Translations under genes and position numbers: made by a program
Assembly: GCA_965656495.1 (NCBI GenBank)
Contig: CBFHKU010000007.1
Coordinates: 40,993 to 104,992, forward strand
Direction: 5' to 3'
DNA from: Coraliomargaritaceae bacterium
Lineage (GTDB): Bacteria; Verrucomicrobiota; Verrucomicrobiia; Opitutales; Coraliomargaritaceae
DNA length: 64,000 nucleotides
Notes under the pieces: generated by a model
Databases searched by the model: none
The model's input: only the letters and a program-made list of their open reading frames with translations
Told to the model about the DNA's origin: nothing
In this document: positions 3,974-9,313 of the stretch, one piece after another
Layout: each line of letters begins with the position of its first letter
Numbering within the stretch: position 1 is the stretch's first letter

Positions 3974-4654
3974 ATGCAGGCGAGTGAATTATTTGAATTT
4001 CCGGATTCGCTTCCCTTTGGGGCTTATTTCCCGATGGAGGCGAGTCCCTGGGAATGGGTGCAGGGCATTAAGGCTGCCTTGGCGGATTTCGACTTCACCG
4101 CAGCTTTACCGGAGATTCCCGCCGGTTTGCATATCGAAGGCCCGGTCTTTTTGGCGGAGGGTGTGAAACTACCCGCACAGGGAACGATTATAGGCCCCGC
4201 TTATATCGGGGAAGGCTGTGAATTGCGCCCGGGGGTTTATATTCGCGGGAATGTCATCGCGGGGGCAGGTTGTGTCTTGGGGAATTCCTGCGAGTTCAAA
4301 AACTGTCTTTTGTTGGATGGGGTACAAGTGCCGCATTACAGCTATGTCGGGGATTCGGTGCTGGGTAACAAGGCCCATTTGGGGGCGGGTGCGATTTGCT
4401 CGAACCTGCGGCTCGATCAGGCGGGTGTGAGGGTGAAGGATTTTGAAGGTGGAAGCCATGCCACCGGAATGCGCAAACTGGGTGCCTTGATCGGTGATGC
4501 CGCCGAAGTCGGTTGCAACGCGGTCCTCAATCCGGGGTCCGTTCTGGGGCAACGTGCGCTGGTTGCGCCTACCTTGTCCTTTAGGGGCACGCTCAAGGCC
4601 GGCACGATGGCATTTGGCCCCTCGGCGATAAAGACCGCCCCCCGGATGGACTAG
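3974..4654 (+). CDS. GlmU-like left-handed beta-helix (hexapeptide repeat) acyltransferase
   Basis: Hexapeptide repeats; HYSYVGDSVLGNKAHLGAG and RKLGALIGD typical of the GlmU C-terminal-like family; no nucleotidyltransferase domain. Confidence 0.8.
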   Translation: MQASELFEFPDSLPFGAYFPMEASPWEWVQGIKAALADFDFTAALPEIPAGLHIEGPVFLAEGVKLPAQGTIIGPAYIGEGCELRPGVYIRGNVIAGAGCVLGNSCEFKNCLLLDGVQVPHYSYVGDSVLGNKAHLGAGAICSNLRLDQAGVRVKDFEGGSHATGMRKLGALIGDAAEVGCNAVLNPGSVLGQRALVAPTLSFRGTLKAGTMAFGPSAIKTAPRMD

Positions 4655-5966: not shown

Positions 5967-6240
5967 AAAACTTGTTTGAACACTCCCCGCCGTTAAGGCA
6001 AGGATGTCTCCAGACATTCCGACATGATTTCTATTGGCAAAGTGATTTTAGCCCTCGGCTTGCTTTCGGTCTTGCGACCCGCACTCGCGACGGATGCCGT
6101 CCCGCATCCCTGAAAGCCCTGCACCAGAAACCCTGTCGGGCCAATCAACCCCTCGCCCGACGCTATCAGCTTACCCGTAAACCGTAGTTCAAAGGGAGAT
6201 TGACAACTGAGGACGGATTCGCGAAATTGCTCCGCTTTAT

Positions 6241-6318
<78 letters not shown>

Positions 6319-6321
6319 TTT

Positions 6322-6373
6322 AAATGCATCTTAAAATATGCGGGACGAGAATCCGCGAACAAAGCGGGTTTGA
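6322..6373 (+). repeat. Direct repeat copy 1 (52 bp) immediately after tRNA-His
   Basis: AAATGCATCTTAAAATATGCGGGACGAGAATCCGCGAACAAAGCGGGTTTGA; matches 7790-7841 at 50/52. Confidence 0.95.
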
Positions 6374-6427
6374 CGCAATGTTTTCAGGCACAGAGGTGCC
6401 GCCCGGAAAACATGAAGATGGCGCAGC

Positions 6428-6449
6428 AGTCCCGTTAGCCACCCCATTT
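6428..6449 (+). repeat. Duplicate of tRNA-His 3' end (tRNA-linked repeat / att-like)
   Basis: AGTCCCGTTAGCCACCCCATTT identical to 6300-6321. Confidence 0.95.
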
Positions 6450-6453
6450 TCTT

Positions 6454-6485
6454 AAAAGCCTCACTTATTCGAGTGAGGCTTTTTT
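6454..6485 (+). terminator. Intrinsic terminator after tRNA-His and its linked repeat
   Basis: AAAAGCCTCACT-TATTCG-AGTGAGGCTTTTTT hairpin with T-tract. Confidence 0.85.
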
Positions 6486-6886
6486 GACAAGTAACCACAC
6501 AGGCCAGCCATCGCACGGCGTGAGATGCGGTGCCAAAGTTCGTTGAAATTTAACGCGGAAAGCAGCTTCTGGGCTATGAACCAATAGACTTGAGCGAGCA
6601 TGCTTCTTGATTCAGAGACTGAGCAGAGTTTTGTGACTCAACGGCTCGGAATCATCTTCAAGCCTCATGTAATCTCGCTTTTATTAAGACGTCTTCAAAC
6701 TTCGCCTACGCTTCGCACACTCAAATGACTAGCCCTCCTCGTGCCACTTGTCCCTGGTCACCTCGTCCGACGCTCTTGCATCTTTCAGCCTACGTGCGAA
6801 CTAGACTACGGTATGAATGCGACTGCTTATGCTATGTATTGACAAGAATGAGTTGCAGATCAGTTTGAGGGGCAAGAGCTGAGTCC

Positions 6887-7468
6887 ATGAATGAATACAA
6901 TTATCAACGCCAAGTGATCGCCTATCATGGTTGTGATCGTTCTGTTGCAGATAAAGTATTGCTCAAAGGTTCGGCCCTCGCTCCGAGCGAGAAAAACTAC
7001 GATTGGCTGGGGAAGGGAATTTACTTTTGGGAACATGGCCCTCAGCGAGCTTTTGATTGGGCAGTGCAGCGTCAGAAAATGGGTAAGATTTCTGAGCCAT
7101 CGGTGGTTGGCGCAATTATTCAGCTTGGGAACTGTTTCGATTTGTTGGATACTCGTTACACGGAAGCTTTGCAGCGGATGTGGCCATTTTTCGTTGAGGC
7201 AAGGGTTCCTGATGCCAAGAGCATCCCTGCAAACCGTTCGTCAAAACAACAACCGGAAGTCGATAAATTGCTTCGTTACCGAGATTGTGCAGTCATTAAT
7301 TGGACGCTTTCACAACTTGAGGAAAGCGAGCCTGCGTATGATTCGGTCCGTGGTGTGTTCCTAGAGGACAAACCTGTTTACGAAGGATCGGAAATTCGCT
7401 TGAAGTCCCATATTCAAATTGCGACCCGCAATCCTGCTTGCATCATCGGATATTTCAGACCATCTTGA
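6887..7468 (+). CDS. Hypothetical protein, putative ADP-ribosyltransferase fold (H-Y clade)
   Basis: YHGC near N-terminus, WLGKGIYFWE, late HIQI strand; spacing resembles the H-Y-E/Q ART triad; TTGACA at 6839. Confidence 0.6.
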   Translation: MNEYNYQRQVIAYHGCDRSVADKVLLKGSALAPSEKNYDWLGKGIYFWEHGPQRAFDWAVQRQKMGKISEPSVVGAIIQLGNCFDLLDTRYTEALQRMWPFFVEARVPDAKSIPANRSSKQQPEVDKLLRYRDCAVINWTLSQLEESEPAYDSVRGVFLEDKPVYEGSEIRLKSHIQIATRNPACIIGYFRPS

Positions 7469-7474
7469 TTTTTA

Positions 7475-7660
7475 ATGAAGACCAGTAGCCCAGTTTTATC
7501 AGCAGATCCTCGTAAGTTGGTGGATCGCTTTGAGCGTCGATTCAAGAGAATGAGCGCAAAAGAAAAAGCGCAGACTCTTGTGGATGCTGGTATCATGACC
7601 CCGAAACACCGAATCAAGGCTCCTTATCGTGAGGCGCTTGCTGGAGTCGGTAAGGGATAA
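7475..7660 (+). CDS. Small basic hypothetical protein (61 aa), putative partner or antitoxin
   Basis: ATG 6 bp after upstream stop; helical basic sequence ending LVDAGIMTPKHRIKAPY. Confidence 0.6.
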   Translation: MKTSSPVLSADPRKLVDRFERRFKRMSAKEKAQTLVDAGIMTPKHRIKAPYREALAGVGKG

Positions 7661-7789
7661 TTTCTCAGACTGAGTCACTAAGTCCCGAAATATAGCCGAA
7701 AAGTTCGAAGAGGGGGCCGTTTGGGCACCACACTCGATAGAATTGGTTCGAAGACGGGTATGCTTGGCACCCCATTTTTGCTCGGGCAA

Positions 7790-7841
7790 AAATGCATCTT
7801 AGAATAGGCGGGACGAGAATCCGCGAACAAAGCGGGTTTGA
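7790..7841 (+). repeat. Direct repeat copy 2 (52 bp)
   Basis: 50/52 identical to 6322-6373; preceded by CACCCCATTT at 7768. Confidence 0.95.
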
Positions 7842-7903
7842 TTCTTTGGTTGTAGGGGTCGGGCTTTTGAGTCCTTATGGCAGAGTTCCTCTGTTACCCG
7901 ACT

Positions 7904-9313
7904 ATGATTCACCGCATCCCTAATTTTTTCCGTGCGCGACTCGTTACTTGCGCGCTGGCGTTTTTACTTTGCCTGCCTCTGTTCGCCGACAAGCCCAATA
8001 TCGTTGTTATCTTTGCCGATGACATGGGTTACGGGGATATGAGTAATAACGGGCATCCCACTATCCGGACGCCATTCCTCGACCAAATGGCTTCTGAAGG
8101 GCAAAAGTGGACGAGTTTTTATTCGGCCTCGCCGGTCTGCACTCCCAGTCGCGCCGCTTTACTCACCGGGCGCTATGCGGTGCGGAGTGGGATGGAATCG
8201 CCGCACAAGGGGGTCCTTTTTCCCGATTCCACCGGCGGACTTCCCGCTGCGGAACTCACGATTCCGGAAATGCTGAAGAGCGCGGGTTACGCCACCGGTA
8301 TGGTGGGCAAGTGGCATCTTGGGCATTTGCCGGAATTCCTGCCGACACAGCATGGTTTTGATTCATGGTATGGTATTCCCTATAGCAACGACATGGACCT
8401 TGATCGCCCAACCGTGACAGCATTGAACGGTGGTCGTCTCGGTGAATGGCACACCGGTATTCACTGGGAGGAACCCAAGTCGGAATACTGGCAGGTGCCA
8501 CTCATGGAAGGGGAGGCCATCCTCGAGCATGCACCGGATCAAACCTTGCTCACAAAGAATTATACCGCCAAGGCGATTGAATTTATCAAAGCAAACAGGG
8601 AACAACCCTTCTTCCTTTACCTCGCCCATAGCATGCCGCACGTGCCACTCTTCCGTTCAGAAAAATTTGAGGGCATCAGTACTGCGGGGCTTTACGGGGA
8701 TGTCATTGAGGAACTTGATGCTTCGGTCGGGGCGATCCTTCAAACATTGAAGGAACAGGGACTCGCTGAAAATACCCTTGTAGTTTTCACCTCCGACAAT
8801 GGCCCCTGGTTACAGTTTAAGACGCAGGGCGGGATCGCCGGCCCCCTGCGTGGTGGAAAGTTTGATACGCATGAAGGTGGAATGCGTGAACCGGGGATCT
8901 TCTGGTGGCCGGGAAAAATTCAACCCGCCATCATTCACGGAATCGGTTCGACCCTTGATCTTATGGCGACCTTTGCCTCGCTGGCAGGTGTGGAAGTACC
9001 GAAAACCGCCGAAGATAGTTATGACCTCACCGCGACCTTAATGAACGGCGCAGACAGCCCCCGCGAGGAACTCTTCTATTATAAAAACGCTCGTGTTGAA
9101 GCACTCCGACTCGGGAGCTACAAAGCGTTCTTCACCTTGGAAGGCGACCCCGCTCAGACCGAGATTCAGGCACTCTACAACCTCGACCACGATCCCGGTG
9201 AAAACTACGACCTGCGCGAATCAAAACCCGAACGATTACATGATTTTATCGCTCGCTACCACGCGCACCGCGCGACCGTGAAACCGGTGGAAGACCAGCT
9301 CATTAAACGTTAG
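7904..9313 (+). CDS. Cys-type (formylglycine) sulfatase, arylsulfatase family, secreted
   Basis: PNIVVIFADDMG, CTPSRAALLTGR, GKWHLG, SDNG; signal-peptide-like N-terminus. Confidence 0.93.
   Translation: MIHRIPNFFRARLVTCALAFLLCLPLFADKPNIVVIFADDMGYGDMSNNGHPTIRTPFLDQMASEGQKWTSFYSASPVCTPSRAALLTGRYAVRSGMESPHKGVLFPDSTGGLPAAELTIPEMLKSAGYATGMVGKWHLGHLPEFLPTQHGFDSWYGIPYSNDMDLDRPTVTALNGGRLGEWHTGIHWEEPKSEYWQVPLMEGEAILEHAPDQTLLTKNYTAKAIEFIKANREQPFFLYLAHSMPHVPLFRSEKFEGISTAGLYGDVIEELDASVGAILQTLKEQGLAENTLVVFTSDNGPWLQFKTQGGIAGPLRGGKFDTHEGGMREPGIFWWPGKIQPAIIHGIGSTLDLMATFASLAGVEVPKTAEDSYDLTATLMNGADSPREELFYYKNARVEALRLGSYKAFFTLEGDPAQTEIQALYNLDHDPGENYDLRESKPERLHDFIARYHAHRATVKPVEDQLIKR

Follow-up and report, generated by a model that had tools for sequence, protein, structure and literature searches.

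A predicted ADP-ribosyltransferase and its small conserved partner form a candidate chaperone-free toxin-antitoxin module, a probable distant relative of CmdTAC

Two small adjoining genes beside a tRNA-His gene of a Coraliomargaritaceae bacterium raise the question of what kind of system they encode and whether it belongs to any system already named. The window analyzed here is a stretch of 64,000 nucleotides (contig CBFHKU010000007.1, positions 40,993 to 104,992, forward strand; assembly GCA_965656495.1). Within it, gene A (6887-7468, + strand) encodes a 193-amino-acid (193-aa) predicted ADP-ribosyltransferase (ART) and CmdT-like putative toxin, and gene B (7475-7660, + strand) encodes a 61-aa basic protein, predicted to form a helical hairpin, that is its conserved partner and putative antitoxin. 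A preliminary description, made from the sequence alone, had proposed an undescribed toxin-antitoxin (TA) or defense cassette. In our reading, A and B probably constitute a two-gene, chaperone-independent ART toxin-antitoxin or abortive-infection module, and the pair is likely an uncharacterized, chaperone-free relative of the CmdTAC anti-phage TA system. On this view, A would be a distant CmdT relative that transfers ADP-ribose from NAD+, and B is predicted to bind and neutralize it.

The two reading frames and their motifs are as originally described. The 193-aa protein A carries the YHGC motif (within AYHGC, residues 12-16), WLGKGIYFWE (40-49), and HIQI (175-178), and the stop codon of A is separated by 6 nt from the start of the 61-aa ORF, whose product is strongly basic (pI 10.7, net charge +9). 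Judged by their sequence relatives, A and B are genuine genes rather than random frames, because relatives of A number 712 in the database at E ≤ 0.001 and 2502 representative clusters, and of 80 genome loci, 78 have a B-like ORF next to A. The pair had been called the only intact cargo of a repeat-bounded segment, and between the repeats we indeed found no further ORF of more than 61 aa except A, B, and overlapping frames. Less durable was the idea of a sigma-70 promoter of the pair's own at the TTGACA hexamer that had been noted upstream (6839-6844, + strand): no −10 element matching this hexamer came up in the promoter scan, and the four promoter-like sites that the scan placed in 6200-8000 all lie elsewhere. 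The promoter/terminator scan detected no terminator 3′ of B, and Rfam over 6150-7950 matched the tRNA alone. Downstream of B lie a repeat at 7790 and then a sulfatase gene at 7877.

The sequence around the pair bears the marks of a mobile segment (all features that follow are on the + strand). The segment adjoins a tRNA-His (GTG) gene at 6242..6318 (ARAGORN; Rfam tRNA, 68 bits). One copy of a 22-nt direct repeat (6300..6321) is the 3′ end of this tRNA itself, and the other, an att-like remnant at 100% identity, lies at 6428..6449. The repeat search also returned a 67-nt direct repeat, with a left copy in the sequence downstream of the tRNA (6322..6388) and a right copy, 87% identical to the left, at 7790..7856. 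An inverted repeat with 19-nt arms followed by a T run, resembling a terminator hairpin (6447..6490), sits at the left edge of a transferred module of 1285 bp (6490..7774). The module's right end has a degenerate tRNA-His T-arm and 3′ end (GGTTCGAAGACGGG...GGCACCCCATTT; 7745..7786), which sequence comparison revealed to be partly kept in the copy of the module described next.

By blastn and genome search, the 1285-bp segment is 92% identical to a segment in one other genus (locus L001, genome G012) with unrelated flanks, and it is absent from all six same-genus genomes searched; its GC content is 48.1% versus 54.1% for the genome. The 1.3-kb segment has moved between genera. Its occurrence in another genus with different flanks, together with sporadic homologues and plasmid carriage (see below), substantiates the mobile, patchy context that had been suggested. 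Comparison with G012 also delimited a conserved noncoding leader (6495..6837), and in G012 the same leader also sits 5′ of an unrelated Gp49/HigB-like plus HTH pair. A structured RNA in the leader was considered and found unsupported, as the 346-nt conserved leader folded no better than shuffled sequences on both strands (z, +1.38 and +0.39).

Three-dimensional modeling places protein A among the ARTs. Searched against the PDB with Foldseek, the AF2 model of A (pLDDT 91.2, pTM 0.86) matched PARP-1/2 catalytic domains best (E, 4.8e-4 to 2.6e-3; TMq, 0.37 to 0.42). VIA-align, run over 48,161 chains, returned PARP2 (Z 8.2, rmsd 4.4, 124 aligned), SAIP (8.0), PARP1 (7.8), ParT (7.6), NatT (7.5), MbcT (7.5), and diphtheria toxin (6.9), and about 40 of the best 50 rows are titled ARTs, PARP domains, or ART toxins; by the tool's own note, models that have no clear Foldseek match also commonly reach a best Z of 7 to 8. 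In a viral structure library, ART-PolyVal-like and PARP-like proteins match A. The structural matches are thus ARTs of the PARP, diphtheria-toxin, ParT, and RES types, and A is predicted, with middling Z scores, to adopt the split beta-sheet ART fold of the H-Y-[E/D/Q] (PARP/diphtheria-toxin) clade. This agrees with the fold that had been proposed from the motifs.

Motif conservation was scored in 110 diverse relatives of A. H14, W40, G44, Y46, W48, D133, H175, and F190 are invariant (110/110), so that the histidine and tyrosine originally singled out are kept throughout. In the model, H14 lies on strand 1 (9-17) and Y46 on strand 2 (45-48), and both are predicted to be NAD-site residues. The third catalytic residue is predicted to be either E160 (conserved in 107/110, on strand 153-163) or Q177, the residue first proposed (also 107/110, on strand 171-180 and near the invariant H175). 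The arginines R54, R130, and R155 and two histidines are likewise conserved. Between strands 4 and 5, the region that governs target selection in other ARTs, A has a long helical insert.

Sequence-level searches returned little. The Pfam PARP profile (PF00644) scored 13.4 bits against A, under its cut-off of 26.7 (E = 0.054, residues 9-95), and gave no match in 301 genomes of the phylum or in controls. The A family is without a Pfam or NCBIfam model: NCBIfam gave zero matches for A or B, and the RES family of Pfam did not match A at E ≤ 1. Searching PDB chain sequences with A alone or with the 110-sequence profile yielded nothing significant. The profile aligned A residues 7-73 with exotoxin A 36-100 at nonsignificant E values (0.7-1.9); its best matches, ornithine aminotransferases (E = 0.03), were rejected as spurious and attributed to the G-x-G-I-Y-x-W stretch.

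Among 5027 PADLOC models searched at E ≤ 1, A matched just two, both PD-T4-9_A models (E, 2.6e-5 and 6.4e-5), and the matches are partial, one spanning positions 12-89 of a 187-position profile and the other about 4-61 (96 at most) of a 191-position profile. Model PDLC04069 matches 107 of the 110 relatives (best E, 1e-9), weakly and N-terminally. In the 301 phylum genomes, PD-T4-9_A found A-family genes only, through weak N-terminal matches (best E, 1.4e-8), and in two other genomes it also found A-family genes only, weakly. The PD-T4-9_A model matches in an archaeal control genome, Methanocaldococcus jannaschii, as well, and may therefore detect features of the ART superfamily rather than specific kinship. 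We infer that PD-T4-9_A is CmdT by comparison with the order of genes in PMC9519451. In PMC11618068, CmdT is described as an mRNA-modifying H-Y-[E,D,Q] ART whose folding and accumulation require CmdA, the CmdTAC antitoxin, which begins with a pair of helices.

The A-B pair resembles this system in several respects. CmdT is a small ART (∼190 aa) that stands alone and has an H-Y-[E,D,Q] triad, as A is predicted to be and to have; in both cases the toxin gene comes first and is followed by a gene for a small protein starting with two helices (CmdA and, according to its model, B); this small protein binds the toxin, as modeling predicts for B; and both systems are carried on mobile DNA. The differences are equally plain. 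The match of A to the CmdT model is weak and takes in no more than a third to a half of it, at the N-terminal end. B, at 61 aa, is without the long disordered chaperone-addiction tail of CmdA, and none of 39 B homologues matched a PD-T4-9 model at E ≤ 1. Gene order is reversed in plasmid and phage clades of the A-B family. The third gene of CmdTAC encodes a SecB-like chaperone that is missing at the A-B locus, and no SecB-like gene occurs there or among 123 neighbors of 65 loci (a scan made without L066-L080). The pair had at first been left unassigned to any named system. It is not CmdTAC, but A is probably related, distantly, to CmdT (PD-T4-9_A), so the pair is not altogether without an assignment.

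Protein B belongs to no named family in Pfam, PADLOC, or the ESM Atlas and matches no antitoxin family. Its model comprises helices at residues 12-25, 28-38, and 49-56, a predicted two-helix hairpin with a conserved G-I-x-T-x-x-G turn. In B and 18 homologues, no DNA-binding domain of an HTH, RHH, or AbrB family was detected; among type II antitoxins such a domain, with autoregulation, is frequent but not required, and a small helical protein such as B could still bind DNA. B had been proposed as a neutralizing partner, and a model of its complex with A predicts that the two bind: three runs gave ipSAE values of 0.73, 0.72, and 0.73 versus 0.00 for the best of three controls. Solved complexes pass the mark applied in 116 of 157 cases and mismatched pairs in 2 of 215, counts that are approximate here, since our own alignments were used. 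The runs have at least 75% of contacts in common, with a partner pLDDT of 77-78, and conserved residues lie on either side of the interface. On A, modeled B touches the helical insert (89-106 and 131-149), the 81-84 hairpin, and the invariant R130/D133/C134 patch. None of the confident contacts involves H14, Y46, E160, H175, or Q177; the model thus does not have B blocking the NAD pocket.

CmdA is also needed to fold CmdT, so binding alone is no proof of inhibition by B. The two proteins could instead be an obligate heterodimeric ART in which B is no inhibitor but a folding or target-recruiting subunit, possibly a nucleic acid-binding one, with control exerted elsewhere. Several features suit such an enzyme: the dependence of CmdT folding and accumulation on CmdA (PMC11618068); the basic character of B in this clade (pI 10.7, with a median of 10.4 over 39 homologues); and a predicted interface that lies on the target-selecting insert and leaves the H14/Y46 site uncovered. 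The strict adjacency of A and B would be expected equally of a TA pair and of an enzyme with two subunits. We nevertheless regard this alternative as unlikely. B homologues on plasmids are sometimes acidic, an example being the one on pRL8 with its acidic C-terminal tail, which makes a general nucleic acid-binding role doubtful, and the patchy spread over plasmids and prophages, with TA and defense neighbors, suits addiction or defense better than a housekeeping holoenzyme.

That spread was surveyed through the relatives of A, for which the source name was "hypothetical protein" in all cases seen among the 120 listed. An A homologue occurs in 16 of 301 genomes of the phylum and in none of 4 same-genus genomes; further homologues lie on 70 plasmid records, 35 of them conjugative, and on 86 viral contigs. 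The B-like ORF of the genome loci is downstream of A on the same strand in 72 cases and convergent in 6, and of the two loci without one, one is a contig end. The convergent arrangement is unusual for co-transcribed TA pairs. On plasmids, a small ORF lies upstream of A in all eight loci inspected, seven with HMM support and the eighth (L098) without an HMM match. At viral loci, a B-like ORF was found upstream in 51 of 80 by HMM, and about 15 of 20 full-length "misses" show one by eye. Conserved pairing with a small ORF, as first proposed, thus extends from the genome loci (78/80) to plasmids and viruses, whereas the toxin-first order proposed alongside it holds for this clade and not as a family trait, the small gene being upstream in the plasmid (8/8) and many viral (51/80) loci. 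Divergence of A correlates with that of B across 78 loci (Mantel r, 0.48, reached by 0 of 999 permutations), a result that shared ancestry alone could yield. A fused A-B protein was rejected, because the spanning open frames in L057 and L070 are out of frame with A. Among the 123 immediate neighbors of 65 loci, 17 are defense, TA, or mobile-element genes, a raw count with many housekeeping genes among the others. Two small adjoining genes, paired across lineages and on mobile DNA, are a trait of type II TA systems, and so is direct binding of the toxin by its antitoxin, which the complex model predicts here.

Carriage on mobile elements also bears on a second alternative. ARTs such as AcrIF11 and the phage Alt/Mod enzymes modify a host or rival-element protein, and the pair might likewise be an offensive or counter-defense tool of mobile elements, with A modifying a host or rival protein and B serving as a specificity or regulatory factor. 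The relatives on 86 viral contigs and 70 plasmids are in keeping with this, as are the match of A to phrog_14664 (E = 3.9e-24), the ART-PolyVal domains of phage in the viral library, and a fold list that includes a cyanophage ejectosome ART as well as the anti-CRISPR entry 6kyf (Z 5.8), taken here as AcrIF11. However, in the window and at many of the 80 genome loci the gene stands by itself, with housekeeping genes around it and neither a phage nor a plasmid backbone, the best match in the defense library is a defense toxin and not an anti-defense protein, and this locus has no aca-type HTH gene. We consider this alternative quite unlikely.

Comparison with other known ART systems delimits the preferred reading, that of a two-gene TA or abortive-infection module. 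ParT-ParS and RES-Xre (MbcT-MbcA and NatT-NatR) are also two-gene TA systems with an NAD+-using, ART-like toxin, and the fold of A scores Z 7.5-7.6 against their toxins (6d0h, 8qnl, and 6fkg). However, A has H/Y motifs instead of R-E-S and no match to the RES Pfam family, and their antitoxins are of the Xre/DUF2384 type, for which Pfam gave no match to B or its homologues. DarTG is likewise a TA or defense module whose ART toxin targets nucleic acid, as A may do by analogy, but its fold match is weaker (7omu, Z 4.4) and DarT models are not among the PADLOC matches. Its antitoxin is an enzymatic macrodomain, whereas the 61-aa helical B is too small to be one, so that neutralization would proceed by binding and not by reversal of the modification. 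The catalytic domains of PARPs, diphtheria toxin, and exotoxin A are the top structural matches and have in common with A the H...Y arrangement on strands 1 and 2, but the sequence likeness of A to them is under family thresholds, strands 4 and 5 of A are separated by a long helical insert, and A is without translocation, receptor, or regulatory domains.

Two further alternatives fared worse. A could be a nontoxic, NAD-dependent enzyme that serves RNA repair or modifies small molecules, such as a Tpt1/KptA-like 2′-phosphotransferase or an antibiotic ART like Arr, B being an accessory protein; Tpt1-type and Arr folds are listed (9ld3, Z 6.1; 7kw9, Z 4.7; 9iaf, Z 4.5), R54, R130, R155, and the two histidines are conserved, and PD-T4-9_A matches in the archaeal control genome. 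These folds score below the PARP, DT, ParT, and RES entries, though, and Tpt1 has an additional N-terminal domain that A lacks; occurrence in 16 of 301 genomes with plasmid and prophage carriage is atypical of repair enzymes, and the obligatory small partner is left unexplained, all of which makes this alternative very improbable. There is similarly little chance that A is a polymorphic ART toxin, either secreted or delivered by contact, with B as its immunity protein, despite the listing of Rhs-type ARTs that have immunity proteins (RhsP2, Z 5.8; TreX, 5.3; TreTu, 4.8; Tne2, 4.6) and a weak ESM Atlas lead for A, DUF3990 (0.87), a family named in papers on T6SS Rhs effectors, because A is a stand-alone protein of 193 aa with strand 1 from residue 9 and no trafficking, PAAR, Rhs, or signal region, and the 123 neighbors include no secretion-system genes save one housekeeping SecA.

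If the A-B pair is a TA or abortive-infection module, analogy with CmdTAC, which ADP-ribosylates GA in single-stranded mRNA and aborts infection, suggests how it might work. A would be kept inactive as long as B is present, and loss of B by proteolysis, by loss of the plasmid or island, or by phage-induced shut-off would set A free. Free A would then ADP-ribosylate nucleic acid, most plausibly single-stranded RNA, and this modification would stop translation and growth, stabilizing the element or aborting the infection. The CmdTAC trigger relies on a SecB-like chaperone of its own. No such chaperone accompanies A-B, so its trigger cannot be capsid competition for a chaperone, and without a SecB-like sensor the trigger would act directly on B or on the A-B complex.

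Nucleic acid-ADP-ribosylating toxins are a recent addition to bacterial immunity, with DarT acting on DNA and CmdT on mRNA, and the principle, a mobile element that pairs an ART toxin with a protein antitoxin, is already known. What the A-B pair adds is a large unannotated family in which the CmdT-like catalytic core is kept and the antitoxin-chaperone pair is replaced by one small protein, which raises the questions of how the toxin is released and whether it has the same target as CmdT. We tentatively suggest, as a reading that may or may not hold in full, that A-B is the first member described of a large TA/defense family of two genes, as yet without a name, in which a new family of helical-hairpin antitoxins would restrain a CmdT-like ART by clamping its target-recognition insert, with chaperone-free sensing and a nucleic acid target possibly other than the GA sites in mRNA used by CmdT. 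Our literature search found no paper describing the two-gene A-B family, and the main text of the NetFlax paper has no ART term; the Extended Data of PMC11618068 on CmdT homologues may show chaperone-less relatives. Since the family is common on conjugative plasmids and prophages, it may, across many phyla, help to maintain plasmids or exclude phages. Defense-system finders that need all three CmdTAC genes overlook it, and the A family comprises at least 2500 clusters at 50% identity, distributed over chromosomes, plasmids, and prophages of many phyla.

Gene A (6887-7468, forward strand), a 193-aa ORF predicted to encode an ADP-ribosyltransferase (ART), is followed after 6 nt by gene B (7475-7660, forward strand), a 61-aa ORF with a basic product (pI 10.7, net charge +9). 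Both are present as the preliminary description had reported, with the motifs that it quoted from A: AYHGC at residues 12-16, WLGKGIYFWE at 40-49, and HIQI at 175-178. The TTGACA that it had noted upstream as the pair's own is found at 6839-6844, but a consensus promoter scan gave no -10 partner, and the hexamer was therefore not counted as evidence for a promoter.

A profile grown from B was used to survey six-frame translations of 80 genome loci encoding A relatives. A B-like ORF adjoins A in 78 of them, directly downstream on the same strand in 72 and downstream but convergent in 6; of the two loci without one, one has a contig that stops 3 nt past A. Plasmids show the opposite order: each of the eight loci inspected has a small ORF directly 5' of A, with the two genes overlapping or separated by at most 8 nt, and the profile recognizes seven of these ORFs. 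Among 80 viral-contig loci, the profile located B on the upstream side of A at 51 and on the downstream side at 1, and detected none at the other 28; about 15 of the 20 viral misses with a full-length A show, by eye, an upstream small ORF with G-[IV]-x-x-x-x-G. The proposed pairing with a small ORF is conserved; the proposed toxin-first order holds at 72 of the 80 genome loci but fails at the plasmid loci inspected and on most viral contigs. Almost constant adjacency combined with variable order and orientation is, at the level of gene arrangement, what a functional unit of two proteins would be expected to show. The divergence of A and B is also correlated (Mantel r 0.48, 0 of 999 permutations), which shared ancestry alone can produce. 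The B-like proteins have the conserved core M-T-x-x-E-x-x-x-x-L-V-x-A-G-I-L-T-x-x-G-x-x-x-K-x-Y; B itself matched nothing in Pfam, PADLOC, or NCBIfam, and Atlas returned unnamed clusters only.

Gene order follows clade. B is upstream on proteobacterial, cyanobacterial, and campylobacterial plasmids and most viral contigs, often overlapping A by 1 to 14 nt (plasmid loci L082-L084 and L094-L098; viral loci L102-L173), and downstream in a verrucomicrobial and myxobacterial chromosomal clade. It is tail to tail with A at L016, L030, L044, L046, L053, and L059; all of these except L053 encode a B with a Y-G-G C terminus, which also occurs on some same-strand homologues.

The structure of A was predicted with high confidence by AlphaFold2 from a 40-sequence alignment (pLDDT 91.2, pTM 0.86). 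Foldseek against the PDB placed the catalytic domains of PARP-1 and PARP-2 on top (E 4.8e-4 upward, TMq about 0.4). VIA-align, an independent fold search, ranked PARP2 first (Z 8.2, rmsd 4.4 Å, 124 aligned), followed by SAIP (8.0), PARP1 (7.8), tankyrase (7.7), ParT (7.6), NatT and MbcT (both 7.5), and diphtheria toxin (6.9), with exotoxin A, RhsP2, Tpt1, Arr, and DarT lower down. According to the tool's note, best Z scores of 7 to 8 are also typical for models without a clear Foldseek match; the argument for an ART fold therefore rests on consistency, with ART or PARP-domain titles in about 40 of 50 rows. A viral structure library likewise gave ART-PolyVal-like and PARP-like matches. These searches of the predicted model support the ART fold first proposed from the motifs. 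H14, W40, G44, Y46, W48, D133, H175, and F190 are invariant in 110 relatives, and the proposed YHG histidine (H14) and G-x-Y tyrosine (Y46) lie on the first and second strands of the model, matching H-Y-E ARTs. The third catalytic residue could be Q177, as originally chosen, which sits beside H175 on the strand after that of E160. The other candidate is E160 itself, on the first strand past a long helical insert (residues 89-144); each of the two is kept in 107 of 110 relatives.

Sequence searches gave A no firm name. Pfam returned only PARP, below threshold (E 0.054, 13.4 versus 26.7 bits), NCBIfam had no match, and PHROGs matched an unannotated family (phrog_14664, E 3.9e-24). At E ≤ 0.001, the family contains 712 relatives in a word-indexed search and 2502 representative clusters in an exhaustive one; none of the 120 A relatives listed carries a Pfam domain or a name other than "hypothetical protein." Both PADLOC matches to A were to PD-T4-9_A (E 2.6e-5 and 6.4e-5), taken here as CmdT. 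PD-T4-9 was later renamed CmdTAC; its first gene encodes CmdT, described as an H-Y-[E,D,Q]-triad ART whose substrate is single-stranded mRNA, modified at GA sites (PMC9519451, PMC11618068). The PD-T4-9_A model matched 107 of 110 diverse A representatives (best E 1e-9), with the alignment confined to its N-terminal part in every match. Across 301 phylum genomes it matched A-family genes only, and weakly (12 genomes, best E 1.4e-8, profile positions 1-96 of 191). It also matches in one archaeal control genome, that of Methanocaldococcus jannaschii, which suggests that it picks up other ART-fold proteins and that weak matches should not be read as CmdT orthology. In light of these weak, N-terminal-only matches and the archaeal match, we read A, on its sequence, as a distant relative of CmdT inside the ART superfamily rather than a CmdT orthologue.

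The sole match in a curated phage collection, in Synechococcus phage S-B28 (MK016662.1, 24503-24661), covers only A residues 10-62 (51% identity) and sits in a 117-aa protein that the viral structure library labels DUF6321; it therefore represents either a fragment or a domain-shuffled relative.

Complex modeling of A with B gave ipSAE values of 0.73, 0.72, and 0.73; the highest of three controls scored 0.00. When the tool was calibrated, 116 of 157 solved complexes reached the mark, as did 2 of 215 mismatched pairs, counts that hold only roughly for a model built with own alignments for both proteins. At least 75% of contacts agree between runs (partner pLDDT 77-78). Modeled alone, B has helices at 12-25 and 28-38, a G-I-x-T turn, and a short helix at 49-56 (pLDDT 82). 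In the complex, its helices and motif lie on the A insert (90-106 and 128-149), the 81-84 hairpin, and Y38, a patch that includes the conserved G81, C83, R130, D133, and C134; H14, Y46, E160, H175, and Q177 are not among the confident contacts. In other ARTs, the insert between strands 4 and 5 is the target-selecting region. From the contacts we infer that B, if an inhibitor, would act by covering this insert rather than by plugging the NAD site.

The best-supported reading, which we consider probable, is that A and B form a type II-like toxin-antitoxin module with predicted functions. In this scheme, the toxin would be A, an ART that uses NAD+, and B would be its small protein antitoxin, acting by binding. 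Once B is lost, A would be released, ADP-ribosylate its target, and arrest growth, which would stabilize the element or abort phage infection. By analogy with CmdT, the nearest characterized relative, single-stranded RNA is a possible, if somewhat doubtful, target. The main rival casts B not as an inhibitor but as a subunit that assists folding or targeting. CmdT is reported to require CmdA for folding (PMC11618068). In this clade B is basic, though it is acidic on some plasmids. Three further readings fit the context or anatomy less well: A as an anti-defense or host-takeover ART of mobile elements, as a Tpt1- or Arr-like nontoxic enzyme, or as a secreted polymorphic toxin with B as its immunity protein.

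As a toxin-antitoxin module, A-B would differ from CmdTAC in having no SecB-like chaperone and an antitoxin with no chaperone-addiction tail; therefore, the capsid sensing demonstrated for CmdTAC cannot apply, and what makes the pair interesting is that it would work without a chaperone. Pfam found no SecB domain among 123 immediate neighbors of 65 loci (a set that excludes 27 neighbors of L066-L080), and all-against-all comparison of 280 flanking ORFs revealed no conserved third gene (no cluster larger than 6). Mobile DNA that pairs an ART toxin with a proteinaceous antitoxin is a principle already known; the predicted toxin lineage is distant from CmdT, and B is a new putative antitoxin family. 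No description of the two-gene family was found in the main-text literature searched, and the main text of the NetFlax paper names no ART.

Defense, toxin-antitoxin, or mobile-element proteins account for 17 of the 123 neighbors by Pfam, a raw count that carries no claim of enrichment. They comprise three PLD-helicase-DUF3427, two Mrr, and two HsdM proteins and one each of HNH, Schlafen-type helicase, NACHT, PIN, HigB, an antitoxin, integrase, IS200 transposase, Rha/P63C, and WCX; many other neighbors are housekeeping (aconitase, SecA, tRNA synthetases, alanine racemase). A homologues occur on 70 plasmid records (35 conjugative, 11 mobilizable, 24 nonmobilizable) and 86 viral contigs. Neighbors at the plasmid loci inspected are relaxase/Tra genes, integrases, RelE/Phd, AbiEii, HNH, ImmA/IrrE, and DUF262. 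At 6 of 80 genome loci (L015, L026, L031, L034, L040, and L041; ORF end about 3985-4001), a SeqA C-terminal-domain protein (180-209 aa, Pfam E 1e-11 to 1e-14) is encoded immediately 5' of A on the same strand, which suggests a three-gene variant of the module.

The 1285-bp segment at 6490-7774 is mobile. It is 92% identical to a chromosome segment of a Coraliomargarita sp. (locus L001, genome G012), which belongs to a different genus of the family; there it has unrelated flanks and lacks a tRNA within 4 kb. By DNA search, G012 is the only one of 20 relatives with the segment, which is absent from 6/6 same-genus genomes and present once in its own genome. At 48.1% GC in a genome of 54.1%, the segment falls near the 10th percentile of genome windows of its size. 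By protein search (E ≤ 1e-10), A homologues occur in 16 of 301 phylum genomes, 1 of 20 from the family, and 0 of 4 sampled from the genus. One verrucomicrobial genome has two, one of which (G054:C141:2772-3341) carries an in-frame TGA and may be decaying.

The repeat-framed setting at tRNA-His (6242-6318) is as first described, with a perfect 22-nt direct repeat of the tRNA 3' end at 6428-6449 and a 67-nt direct repeat of the sequence immediately 3' of the tRNA (6322-6388 and 7790-7856, 87% identity). Sequence comparison added a degenerate copy of the T-arm and 3' end at about 7745-7786, making three copies of the 3' end with the tRNA's own; no integrase is encoded in the interval that holds them (6242-7860). 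This tRNA-His-to-sulfatase interval differs in content or length among same-genus genomes, from about 75 kb in G006:C2 to about 0.9 kb of different sequence in G001:C35 (L093), which suggests an integration hot spot within the genus.

A conserved noncoding stretch of about 345 nt (6495-6837) precedes A, with no RNA-folding signal. A 68-nt piece of it recurs once in the same genome (G000:C15:12786-12853). The stretch itself also recurs at a second G012 site (L091, G012:C1, 1666-2163; 76 to 93% identity in three blocks), broken by two mutually similar inserts of about 76 nt. The genes that follow it there are another pair, encoding a Gp49/HigB-like toxin and an HTH antitoxin; the stretch may serve small toxin-antitoxin cassettes as a common leader or recombination site.
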